Shown here: piece by piece, positions 15,001 through 21,000 of the stretch | How positions within the stretch are numbered: the first letter of the stretch is position 1 | Layout: each line of letters opens with the position of its first letter | Virus record (IMG/VR): IMGVR_UViG_3300027782_000037 | Location: 1 to 64,000 of that record | DNA: 64,000 nt | Reading direction: 5' to 3' (one strand) | From: a virus | Position numbers: made by a program

Positions 15001-18000
15001 TTTAGTTGCTTGAAATGGCTTATTCATTATAATAAATCCCACATCAGTAGTAACTGATATTTCACCGGTTTTGCAATCACGCTCTATATCTCGCCATCCA
15101 AATGGACAGCTAGGTAGTAAGATAATAGTACTGCGACCAAACTCATCTACTGTAGCAGTAAAGTCTGTGCCACGTACACCTATCGTGGCAACCGGAGTAT
15201 TAACCGATACTGATTGCGGATTGTTCTTGGCAATTTGCCCACTAGCGTAACGCACAGTGCCATGTGCTACATTGACTGCTAACTTGCCACCCTTAGTAGT
15301 AGCGGGATCGTAAACAAAATCATCTATTACTAATCGACTATTTTCGTTTACTAAAACCTTTGTATCATCAGCAAAGGTTATTCCCACTTTTCCCTGAGTT
15401 GTCCGAACCGCATCTTCCATCTCCACTTTTGTCCCCTTCTTCCCTTCCAGATTTTCCTTCTTGCGTTGTATATTTGGAACTGTGTTGGTAGTTTCTGTGA
15501 CTGTCCCTATCGCGGCGTCGGATTTCTGCGATGTACTCACTAAGCAAACCAATAGTACGACCATCCATAATTTCATCACTCCTCCGACTTATCTTGTATT
15601 GCTATTAACGGTAAATGTATTAGTGCTACCAACAGACTTAATGTTTATAATACTGTCTGAACTAGTGCCACCCTGTGTGATGCTGGTTGTATTGCCTGAT
15701 CCATTATAGTCTAATTTAACAGAATGTCCATTAGTTGCACCACCGCTTTGTGTGATTCCGGTAGTATTACTAGCACCAACAGTAGTGATATCAACGGTAC
15801 CCTTATCGCCAGTCATGTTAAGTGTTGTGCTATTGCCACCACCACCTGTTTGACTAATTGTAGTGAGTGTAGAGTTAGCGTTAATTGTAGCAACTAAACT
15901 GTTGTTTGCTCCGCCTGCGGTAACTGCTGTAAAATTATTTCCAGAGCCTAATACATTAACATTAGCGTTAGCTGTGTTGCCACTTTGTGTAATGCTAATG
16001 TAATTACTTTCACTCACGCCAGATCCAGAATTATTACTGTTAATGACAGCAGTGGCGTTGTTACCAGTTACACCGTATATAACGGTAGGATTATTCATGC
16101 CATTACCGGTAGTAGTTTTTACACCCAGGCTCAGCATATTGCCACTACCAATTTGATTGATGGTAATTTGATTGTTGTCTCCATAGATAGTACTGGGAGT
16201 ACTATTACCTGACCCTATTCCCTGTATACCACGGACAACGTTGCCTGCGCCGTCTTGCGTTATATTGATGGTAGCGTTGTCTCCGCTTTGATCAATATAG
16301 ATACTATTGTCGGCTGCGATTGATAAACTAGCAAATCCGATTAGTAGTAATGCCAATATTTTTTTTATTATTGTTGTCATTATACTTCCTTAAGGGTTGT
16401 GCCCTTGTTATTATTTTGGGGTCTCTTTAAAATCCCAAACTCCTTTTCGTTGACCTTCTTTAATCAACTCCACCACCGCTGCTTCTATAGTGGTTTTAAC
16501 TGCCAATGTTCCCGGCTCGTTAATCGTTAGGCCCGATTCAGCCTCAAATGCCTGTGTTCCATTATCTAGAAACTTTAATACAGCAATACTATCTGATGTA
16601 CTGTATACCGTTTTAGTAACTGTTACTGCCATCAGTACCTTGCCGGTATTAACGCTTATTGCCCGCAGGCTTATAGTAACAATGTCTTTACTATATTGAG
16701 TTTGTGGTCCAATGCCTAACCACCTAAACGCAGATCCACCAGACTCAGAGCTGCTATCATATCCTATAATTCCACCTTCTATCAGCATTCCAGCAAATAT
16801 TAATGGCATCAGTGGCTTGGCTTCTTTACCTTCGTACGATTCTCTCATTTGTCGTATTAGCTGTCGTTCACGAGTAAGTCCATCTAATGCCACCCGTTCA
16901 ACAACTTCAAACCAACGTCCATTGCCTACATCTTGTAGGGCTTTAATTAGAAACGTAACGCCTCCTTGTGTTACAGCATTACTCAAACTAGCAATACCCG
17001 GAGTGGGTTTACGCTGTCCAGTTTGATCAGCAAATGCGTATACTGCCACTACCACTGGCCTAGGATTAGCGGGAAGTGGTATTGTATCAAATTCCTTTTG
17101 CATTTTATTCACAGCAGTTTCTGGCTTAAACTCTTTTCCCATCTTCTGTGAAATGGAACATCCTGACAATAATAAGGCTAATAATAAAGTTAATATCTTC
17201 ATGGACTAGATGCAGGAAATTGAAATGACCCTAAGGGTATAGTTACAGTAGTTTGGTTGCCAATAGTGTCTGTGACTTGCATATTAATATTTGTGCCATC
17301 TTTGCTCCAAAAGATAGTATTGCCCTCAAAGTTTAATGTACCTTGATTTGTTCCTCCGTTGGCAAACATAGCAGTTGCTAAGTTTTGGCTAATTTGGGCA
17401 TAAATCCTACTTTCCAAATTATTAAGAAACTTGGCAATATTAGTGCTCTGCTTGTCTGCCTTAGCTTTATCTATAGCAGCTTGTATATCTTTCTTAACCT
17501 GAGCTTGACGAGTAAATTCTTGGTTCTCTATAGTCAGGACATGGGCACTATAGCCGTTTCCAGTAAAACTGGGTGACTTAAACTGATAGTCTGCTATCGG
17601 GGTCGCGACGGCTTGCAAGGAGATCGCGGTAAAACATAGCAGAGTTGTAATTATTTTTGTTATCATACTCTCGCTCCTAAAAGTATTTAATAAAAAATTA
17701 CAACCAGTTAAGTTGTCACATAATAGACTTATCCCTTAGGTACAATTCCAGTCCACGAGGTATCTGGCTCGGATTCAATGTACCCAAGTATTCTTGTTTT
17801 TACTACTTCGTAGAATGAATCCAGTTGTTCCCCCCAAAATCCCATTAGGGTATCTATTGCTTGAATACAAAAATCCCAATTTCTTTTTCGATAATTATCC
17901 ATTAGATCTTGGTGTAGTTTTGTAAAAATCTCCACTTTGACAAGTTCTTCCAGCGGTAAATTTTCCACTACGCAATATGCCGTAATAGGCTTGCTACTGC

Positions 18001-21000
18001 GTATAGTCACAGTATCTAATTCAAGAACTATATATTTTTCTTGTAGTTTTGTTACTTCAGCGGTGCCGAAAATTATATTCAATTCGTATCTCCTGTTAAA
18101 TAATTATCTGAATATAGTTACCCAACATAAAAAGATGACCTTACATGAATTTTAATTTTGACCTTATTAGTGATATACATAGAGAAACCTGGAATCAGTT
18201 TGATTGGACCGGACAACCAACTGCACAGTATTGTATTGTAGCAGGTGATATTGCTAGAGATCGGGCCCTTGTAGTAGATACGCTAGAACACCTAAGTGAA
18301 GTTTATACCGGTGTCTTTTATATCGATGGAAACGACGAGCATAAAGATTATGCAGAAAACTTAAATCGTAGCTACGCTGAATTAGCTGATCTTATCGGCC
18401 CAATGAAGAATGTGGTATATATGCAGGATAATGTGGTTGTTATGAACGGCGTTGCTATTTTGGCCACTAATGGCTGGTGGAGTTATGACTTTGATCCTAA
18501 TTTATCAGTAGACCAATCATTAGCCTGGGTGCAGCAAAAGGATGGAATTAGTCAGCAGGCTGCGATTAATATTAATGAAACAGCATATCGAGATGCCGGG
18601 TATTTGGTTAACAGCGTTTCTAAATTACAAACTTATAATGATGTAAAATCTATAATTATTGTCACACATACAGTACCAACTCCAGAAATTATACAACATG
18701 ATCTAGAACTAAAAGATACATGGCGATATAATTCCATGGGAAACAAATACGTAAATGCTACTCTTGATTCAGATACTGAACGAAAAATTAAACTATGGTG
18801 TTTTGGTCATTATCATAGACCAGTGGATACCGTAATAGATAGGGTTAGATATGTCAGTAATCCTCGCGGACGAGGAAATACTGAATATTCTCAATTTGCG
18901 TATTACCCTAAAAGGATATCAGTTCCCATTAACTAGATTCCGGTTCTATTTGAATCTTCAGCGGCATATTTACTGAACGAGCGGCCATTGAAACCTCAAT
19001 TCCTTTTTGTTCTGCGATTTCATAAGGTAACACAGCTACGACTGCGGAGCCGATTTCATGTATATCCTGTGTAATTTTTACAGCAGTATCTGGTGTATAA
19101 TTAAAGAAGTTCATTAATGACTCAACAACAAATTCCATTGTTGTCCCATCGTCGTTTAAATAGATAACTTTAAACAGTGGAGGCTCTTTAATTTCCTGAT
19201 TAACATCAGGTCTTGTGATTACATCTGCTTGTGACATACTAGTTCCTTAAGTTTAGTACAGGGCGTAATTGCCCTGTACTGTATTTACTATATTTTACTA
19301 CGATTCGTACGTAATAAAAATAGTTTTAGGCTGAAGTGCTTCGGGAATATTACGTTCTAACCGTACGGTTAAAATGCCATTTTTCGACGATGCATTAACT
19401 ACTTCGACATAATCAGCTAGACTAAATGTGCGAATAAAATTACGAGCACTAATACCGTTATGCGAATAGGTGTGGCCTTCGGGAAGTTCTTTGTCCTGTT
19501 TTTTGCCAGTGACAATAAGAGTATTGTCCTTAACTTCAACATTGACCTCGCCCTCACTAAATCCAGCGGCGGCTACTTGAACTTCAAAAGTATTTTCGCC
19601 TGTTTTAATAATGTTGTATGGAGGGTAGTTAGAGTTTTCGTTACCGTGATGCTCAATTTGATTCATAATACGACTGAATAATTGATCTACGCCGATAGCG
19701 TTTCGAGTGAATGGATTGAAATCCAGGGTGGTGATTTTTGTCATTGTTTTCTCCTTTAATTAAACGAAGTGACATTGTTAATAGGCCCGACCATCGGCAC
19801 CTACAACAGTATTTATTATACTATAAAATCATTAACTACTAATATTATTTGGTAAAATTAATAGAATTTCTTGGGAAGTTCTTGGGCACGAAGTTTCTTT
19901 TTCCAACGGCTTTTGGCTGCACCCTTTTTTCTTTTTCTGGTAGTGGTGGGTTTCTCATATGTTTCCCTGGCTCGTAATTCGTCCAACAAGCCTGAGTCCT
20001 GTATTTTCTTTTTAAATTTTCTAAGTGCCTTTTCCACGTTTCCGTCATTGACAATTACTGTGTGTCCGTAAAGCTTCATTCATTCTCCCTTGCGAGTGTC
20101 GCTGGAGTATTTACTAGTTTTGACGTAATTGCCACTGATAATATACTCTGTTTGCGATATTTTGTCAGGTCGAACATATGAGGTAATAGTATGCGTTCTA
20201 ACTCTGTATGTAGTCCTCGAGCACCTGTTTTAGTTTTAAGAGTACGTTCTGCTATAAGATTTAACGAGTCTTTTTCAAAATTAAGTTCAACACCATCTTG
20301 TTTAAACAGCCATTTATATTGCCCAACGTAATTGTGTTTAACATCGGTTAATATACTGATTAATTGGTCTTTGGTCAGACCTTGTAAATTGACTAAGTTG
20401 CCAAATCTACCAACAAATTCCGGTATCATACCATATTTGACCAAATCATCTGGTGATGCTGCCATATTCTCCAGGGATTCTTCCTTGGCAATATCAGCAT
20501 TAAATCCCATAGCTGTTCCCTGTACTCGACTCTTTACAATTTTATCAAGGCCAACAAATGCCCCGCCGGAGATGAATAGGATATTAGTAGTATCAATTTC
20601 AACAGTGGTATCACCTCGTCGTATACCGGGAGGACTAATCTTAACTTTGGTTCCTTCGATTAATTTAAGCAAGGCCTGTTGCACACCTTCGCCCGATACG
20701 TCCCTGCTAACTGTAGCACTTTCGCTTTTGCGAGCAATTTTATCTATTTCATCTAAAAAGATAATACCGCGTTGGGTGCGTTCTACATCCGAGTCAGCGT
20801 TTTGGTATAATCTTAATATAACAGAGTCAACGTCATCGCCGACATATCCTGCTTCGGTAAGTGTAGTCGCATCGGCTATGGCAAATGGTACGTTCAAATA
20901 TTGTGATACAGTCTTTACCAGCAGGGTTTTACCTGTCCCAGTGGGCCCAACCATTAATATATTTGCTTTGTCAATTTCGTTTTCAGGATTGCTGATACGT

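Follow-up and report, generated by a model that had tools for sequence, protein, structure and literature searches.

A small phage protein homologous to the C-terminal module of CHASE2 class III cyclases: a free-standing viral family and its possible role

How does a gene equivalent to only the last part of a cyclase come to stand alone in a phage genome, and what might its product do there? The question arises from a 64,000 nt stretch of viral DNA (hereafter the window; positions 1 to 64,000 of IMG/VR record IMGVR_UViG_3300027782_000037), which encodes a 117 aa protein, P0002, beside the curli gene csgF and, elsewhere, a 683 aa cyclase, P0001, composed of a CHASE2 domain, a transmembrane region and a class III cyclase domain. 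An earlier note on this DNA described P0002 as a stand-alone copy of the cyclase's C-terminal domain, acting as a decoy, inhibitor or adaptor of the phage or host cyclase and linking the two halves of an island. In the reading that we favour, with a probability of roughly 0.5, P0002 is a stand-alone and catalytically inactive form of the C-terminal module of CHASE2 class III adenylate cyclases, acting as a soluble, non-catalytic binding module.

Residues 1-97 of P0002 align with residues 565-661 of the window cyclase at 29% identity in a BLASTP comparison (E 2e-12), and the motifs on which the earlier note based its alignment are all present. When a profile of 107 P0002 homologues was compared with one of 55 cyclase C-termini using hhalign, they matched with a probability of 99.9% (E 5e-31) over 113 columns, extending from 2 to 115 of both profiles. 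Given these two E values, the homology is real and extends across all of the small protein, which corresponds to the final ~115 residues of the cyclase. Only two copies of the module were found in the 157-kb record, P0002 itself and that at residues 565-683 of the cyclase; as the open frame encoding P0002 is just 124 codons long, it is not joined to a polypeptide of the CHASE2-membrane-cyclase type.

An AlphaFold2 model of P0002 (predicted local distance difference test score, pLDDT, 90.4; predicted template modelling score, pTM, 0.84) has strands at residues 2-5, 18-27, 33-39 and 114-116, and helices at residues 8-13, 44-65, 69-79 and 88-103. The resulting order of elements, strand-helix-strand-strand-helix-helix-helix-strand, matches residues 566-680 of the cyclase one for one with an offset of 564 residues, as predicted by a model of cyclase residues 405-683 (pLDDT 86, pTM 0.87). 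In Pfam terms, the cyclase has a CHASE2 domain at residues 14-324 and a class III cyclase domain at residues 420-595 (PF00211, 64.8 bits), and its model is most similar to the solved structures of Pseudomonas aeruginosa CyaB (3r5g, Z 18.6) and Spirulina CyaC (1wc4, Z 17.8). Superposition onto solved cyclases begins at about model residue 9 and ends at model residue ~200-206, equivalent to residue ~604-610 of the protein; because they align only up to this point, the subsequent helices represent an extension of the cyclase fold. The first ~40 residues of P0002 are therefore distinguished from the rest: they are the last strand-helix-strand-strand of the canonical fold, of which the PF00211 match reaches cyclase residue 595, whereas residues ~44-117 are a true tail, a three-helix extension of ~75 residues and a terminal strand with no counterpart in solved cyclases. 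The module is the end of the cyclase fold with a helical extension, rather than the separate C-terminal domain of the earlier note. Neither Foldseek nor a profile search of PDB sequences found a significant match for the whole of P0002, whilst VIA-align superposed helices 44-106 on proteins of the tetratricopeptide repeat (TPR) type with Z 5-6 over 55-69 residues, which is the background level.

The absence of all catalytic motifs from P0002, also proposed previously, follows from the part of the cyclase to which it corresponds. The catalytic residues of the latter (D428, K470, D474 and the GDxVN..R segment at ~548-555) all lie N-terminal to residue 565, at which the alignment begins, so that both metal-binding aspartates, the substrate-defining lysine and the transition-state asparagine/arginine pair are missing. 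The triphosphate-contacting KGK loop between the last two strands (K592-G593-K594) does fall within the aligned region; it is invariant in the cyclases, but reads R-S-S in P0002 and is variable across the stand-alone family. The polar and aromatic residues H57, Y64-R65, D88, Y91, R97 and W110-x-G112 are invariant in both families.

P0002 belongs to a large family. A word-indexed search returned 108 clusters (at 90% identity) of proteins between 114 aa and 133 aa long, with identities as low as 34%, and an exhaustive profile search found 897 representatives of clusters at 50% identity (E <= 1e-3), the best 150 of which are all about 80-144 aa in length. In IMG/VR, 243 contigs have the long form and 335 match a shorter, more divergent one; the nearest ESM Atlas clusters are 88-98% viral. 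No match to P0002 was found by tblastn among 50,697 deposited phage genomes, nor any Pfam family by hmmscan at E <= 1, the PF00211 and TPR models included. The shorter branch (100-108 aa; loci L167-L243) is likewise found after the genes for ribosomal protein S21, Hsp20 and ClpS; it lacks the C-terminal EPD..W.G strand and keeps the rest, and its contigs include records of about 150 kb and of 344-354 kb.

The homologues are not decayed. Ratios of nonsynonymous to synonymous substitution rates (dN/dS), calculated by the Nei-Gojobori method for pairs with dS below 1, are mostly 0.04-0.14, both in genomes that have the accessory island and in those that lack it, and to judge by these values the stand-alone protein is functional and under strong purifying selection. 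A maximum-likelihood tree of the module places the stand-alone proteins in a single clade (Shimodaira-Hasegawa-like approximate likelihood ratio test support, SH-aLRT, 100), and the branch between this clade and all of the cyclase tails, those of phages and bacteria alike, is ~1.1 substitutions per site long. Since the family is monophyletic and this far removed from every cyclase tail, it is an ancient paralogue and not a duplicate of the resident cyclase. Hence P0002 is homologous to the C-terminus of this phage's cyclase, as the earlier note had it, without being a copy of it.

The same module is native to the CHASE2 cyclases of cells, being found in many alphaproteobacterial genomes. Longer, fused forms were found through a cyclase alignment and profile searches of whole genomes, a word-indexed search having returned a single cyclase and been uninformative. 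Scanning the alignment against one genome per prokaryotic species returned 80 loci, mostly on chromosomes of Bradyrhizobium, Afipia, Tardiphaga and Rhodospirillales, with ~35% identity over the full length, and the hidden Markov model of the P0002 family matches all 80 of these cyclases at the extreme C-terminus, ending 4-6 residues before the stop codon. Of 301 genomes sampled evenly from the class to which Bradyrhizobium belongs, 107 have the module, nearly always in frames of 520-1265 codons. Because the first 40 residues of the module form strands integral to the fold that all cyclases share, evolution must have proceeded from cyclase to fragment, rather than by fusion, with P0002 having kept the 3' end of a cyclase gene.

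The only short frame examined in a cellular genome, one of 133 codons in a GC-rich alphaproteobacterium (G308, contig C3), was rejected as a cellular stand-alone form. The chromosomal CHASE2 cyclase at this locus (L244:1894-3459) is frameshifted right after its GDPVNLA motif, through either pseudogene formation or sequencing error, and the tail consequently reads as a separate frame of 86-133 codons. The top three 'cellular' cyclase hits (L083, L084 and L085; 42-51% identity) come from metagenome-assembled genomes labelled Luteolibacter, Bacteroidetes and Caulobacteraceae; they group with phage cyclases in the tree, and are probably encoded by phage contigs binned into these assemblies.

Phage cyclases vary in this respect. 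All of those found beside a stand-alone gene carry a tail of their own, as does gp104 of the cultured pelagimyophage Melnitz (L163/L165), in which the profile detects the module with E 6.6e-11. In gp019 of HTVC008M (L164), the match to the cyclase ends at residue 601 and the tail module is absent, so at least one phage cyclase can do without it.

The position of the stand-alone gene was compared across a close set of 80 loci and a divergent set of 77. At 80/80 and 73/77 of these, respectively, a clpX-bS21-hsp20-clpS block precedes it on the same strand. A divergently oriented metallophosphoesterase gene separates it from clpS at most of the close loci; at the eight that lack this neighbour, among them L052, L060 and L068, the stand-alone gene abuts or overlaps the clpS stop codon. 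What lies on its other side is far less constant: a curli cassette, csgF-csgG-curlin-FecR-curlin with or without a cyclase gene, is downstream in only 19/80 and 36/77 loci, the remainder having glycosyltransferase and phosphoesterase genes or other cargo. Among relatives of 316-347 kb that are 91-100% complete, the stand-alone gene is present in all five, and a cyclase domain and CsgG in one; neither PF00211 nor PF03783 is matched anywhere in the other four genomes of ~340 kb. Hence the stand-alone gene is a core gene in the backbone of a clade of large (~340 kb) aquatic phages, forming the fixed edge of a variable region in which the curli/FecR/cyclase cassette is an accessory island. P0002 does indeed lie just upstream of csgF on the same strand, as originally observed, at a distance of 62 nt; the proposal that it links two halves of the island is not compatible with a backbone gene seen in about 150 related contigs.

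Within the window, the cyclase gene is inverted relative to the operon of the cultured pelagimyophages and divided from the curli genes by a metallophosphoesterase gene, a GT4 glycosyltransferase gene and a small open reading frame (8941-17666), and the FecR-domain protein is always encoded between the two curlin-repeat genes. At two loci (L035:6898-7098 and L038:4015-4215), all that is left of a CHASE2 cyclase gene is its first 67 codons, ~860 nt downstream of the stand-alone gene and with 58% identity to the window cyclase, in what looks like the scar of an island deletion. Identification of the divergent neighbour of P0002 as a cyclic-nucleotide phosphodiesterase was considered and rejected, as only generic phosphoesterase models match it.

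The start position and ribosome-binding site of the stand-alone gene are conserved in 81 orthologues, 60 of which start with ATG, 12 with TTG and nine with GTG. The near-consensus match TTAACA-16-TATAAT at 18099-18072 begins in the spacer and crosses the start codon, extending 11 nt into the reading frame. The spacer motif ATAAYTATTTAA is conserved along with AGGAG across orthologous loci (both lie within 18072-18107 on the minus strand); a role for ATAAYTATTTAA as a repeated promoter element was rejected, as there are no further copies within the window.

Table 1. Coordinates of P0002, the window cyclase and the features around them
Feature	Position in window	Strand	Comment
P0001, CHASE2-transmembrane-class III cyclase gene	8941..10992	+	683 aa; part of the accessory island
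Module inside P0001 homologous to P0002 (residues 565-683)	10633..10989	+	Last beta-alpha-beta-beta of the catalytic fold and helical tail
Second calcineurin-like metallophosphoesterase, LpxH-like	11112-11912		Island; paired with the GT4 gene
GT4 glycosyltransferase	12021-13028		
Small open reading frame	13025-13336		
Curlin-repeat gene	13838-14461	minus	Curli cassette
FecR-domain gene	14458-15579	minus	Curli cassette
Curlin-repeat gene	15589-16380	minus	Curli cassette
csgG	16411-17202	minus	Curli cassette
csgF	17199-17666	minus	Downstream of P0002, same strand
P0002, stand-alone cyclase-tail module	17729..18082	minus	117 aa; TTG start
Divergent intergenic region	18083..18144	.	62 nt between P0002 and the metallophosphoesterase gene; contains ATAAYTATTTAA, a locally conserved motif
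Shine-Dalgarno AGGAG	18090..18094	minus	7 nt before the P0002 TTG start
Calcineurin-like metallophosphoesterase, divergent neighbour	18145..18936	+	Generic phosphoesterase, PHROG 1649; in 72/80 close loci
clpS	18929-19237	minus	Backbone block
hsp20	19298-19744	minus	Backbone block
bS21	19858-20079	minus	Backbone block
clpX	20076-21266	minus	Backbone block upstream of P0002

If P0002 is a soluble binding module, the cyclase strands that it retains would serve as a folding platform for the helical tail, with selection acting on the function of the tail itself. The invariant residues common to the two families suggest that the protein may bind the same partner or ligand as the tail does in cyclases, and during infection it would most likely be used as a free-standing binder. 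It might, for instance, mimic the tail of a CHASE2 cyclase of the host or compete with it; this host-directed step is a conjecture, which we think more likely wrong than right. About as doubtful is the fuller proposal that these viruses have a 'tail-only' family specific to them which, as a soluble mimic of a regulatory module of the host CHASE2 cyclase, would allow host cyclic AMP signalling to be intercepted or rewired without a cyclase being encoded. Several considerations weigh against assigning P0002 this kind of role. It has no match in the Pfam, NCBIfam, PHROG or PDB sequence families; the partner of the tail is putative, in the cyclases and the free protein alike, as is a tail-bearing cyclase in the hosts of these phages. 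Furthermore, the constant neighbours of the gene are concerned with proteostasis rather than signalling, the conserved residues might be purely structural, and the exposed sheet edge of the model could equally mean that the protein self-associates.

The constancy of these neighbours underlies the main rival explanation, that P0002 is a proteostasis accessory working with the phage ClpS, Hsp20 and ClpX as an adaptor, in substrate delivery or as a regulator, its helices forming a TPR-like binding surface. The near-universal presence of clpS upstream on the same strand fits such a role, as do the eight loci at which the two genes meet directly, the weakly TPR-like character of helices 44-106, and the joint absence of clpS and the stand-alone gene from Melnitz and HTVC008M. 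However, in most loci the two genes are separated, either by a gene in the opposite orientation or by variable DNA of 1-3.5 kb, other jumbo phages have ClpS with no stand-alone gene, and the structural resemblance does not rise above background; what is left is synteny, and a shared position in the backbone is weak evidence of a shared function. We therefore regard this explanation as unlikely, albeit less so than the other rivals. As applied to the phage-encoded CHASE2 cyclase, the model put forward in the earlier note makes P0002 its decoy, inhibitor or adaptor and places the gene in the curli/cyclase island; it draws on the homology to the cyclase tail and on the arrangement in the window, where no terminator separates the gene from csgF, an order recurring wherever the cassette follows. 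Yet four near-complete genomes keep the gene with neither a cyclase nor CsgG, and every co-resident cyclase has its own tail, for which reasons a role with the phage's own enzyme is improbable, a conclusion that is well supported. Purifying selection is also equally strong in genomes without cyclase and CsgG, Melnitz and HTVC008M have the cassette without the stand-alone gene, and the family is an ancient paralogue.

Two further explanations would make the protein itself of little consequence. As a leader or regulatory gene, its transcript, or a promoter-like site embedded in it, would drive the downstream cargo; the TTAACA-16-TATAAT match overlapping the start codon, and the fixation of this gene between two hypervariable flanks, could be understood in this way. 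Selection has nevertheless acted on the protein, as is evident from the low dN/dS and the many invariant or nearly invariant residues, whilst the TATAAT hexamer is a by-product of Asn-Ile-Ile codons and is lost in orthologues using other synonymous codons, making this explanation very improbable. Finally, P0002 corresponds exactly to a 3' gene fragment, and a true remnant of the 5' end of a cyclase gene does occur at L035 and L038, raising the prospect that it is a functionless, decaying relic of a deleted cyclase. This is refuted by conservation: there are hundreds of intact orthologues of constant length, with identities as low as 34%, a conserved start and ribosome-binding site, and low dN/dS.

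Whatever its partner, the stand-alone protein defines a family of about 900 clusters at 50% identity that is absent from the Pfam, PHROG and NCBIfam libraries searched, and marks out, at the C-terminus of bacterial CHASE2 adenylate cyclases, a conserved module that is covered by no solved structure. As a free-standing viral form exists, this module and the final strands of the catalytic fold can probably fold and function as a unit of their own, and the viral protein provides a handle on the function of the tail in cyclase signalling. The picture of the phage curli/FecR/cyclase island is also corrected, in that the stand-alone gene lies outside it. Were mimicry of a host cyclase to prove true, these proteins would represent a new class of phage effector, derived from part of the very enzyme against which they act, and the uncharacterised cyclase tail would be a regulatory docking module.

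The phage curli operon has been described previously (PMC7029224, PMC9004378); in a text search of these two papers, the word 'cyclase' was absent and nothing on the stand-alone gene was found. In the cultured pelagimyophages HTVC008M and Melnitz, the genes csgF-csgG-curlin-FecR-curlin-cyclase form a single collinear operon, and it is the same cassette that adjoins P0002 in the window. However, these phages have smaller genomes (~145 kb) without either ClpS or the stand-alone module, and in the phages that do encode the latter the cassette is an optional neighbour. A 115 aa gene upstream of csgF in Melnitz was considered as a P0002 homologue and rejected, as the family profile does not match it.

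Of the known protein families, TPR-like adaptors such as SRP72, NrfG, BamD and Rap are similar to P0002 only in that helices 44-106 can be superposed on them, with Z values no higher than the background for helical models; the sequences do not match, and with one hairpin and one helix the likeness is a resemblance only. The canonical class III catalytic domain (PF00211; 3r5g, 1wc4) is equivalent to just the first ~40 residues of P0002, which has none of its catalytic residues, falls outside its Pfam model and continues for 75 residues that have no counterpart in it. Relative to the CHASE2 cyclases of Bradyrhizobium, Afipia, Tardiphaga and the Methylophilales phage Melnitz, P0002 has its own start codon and ribosome-binding site, has neither the CHASE2 sensor nor the membrane helices nor the four-fifths of the cyclase fold that are catalytic, has lost the KGK loop and belongs to a separate clade. 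What it shares with the C-terminus of these proteins is a profile match over the full length, the same order of structural elements, and the invariant H, Y-R, D..Y, R and W-x-G residues.

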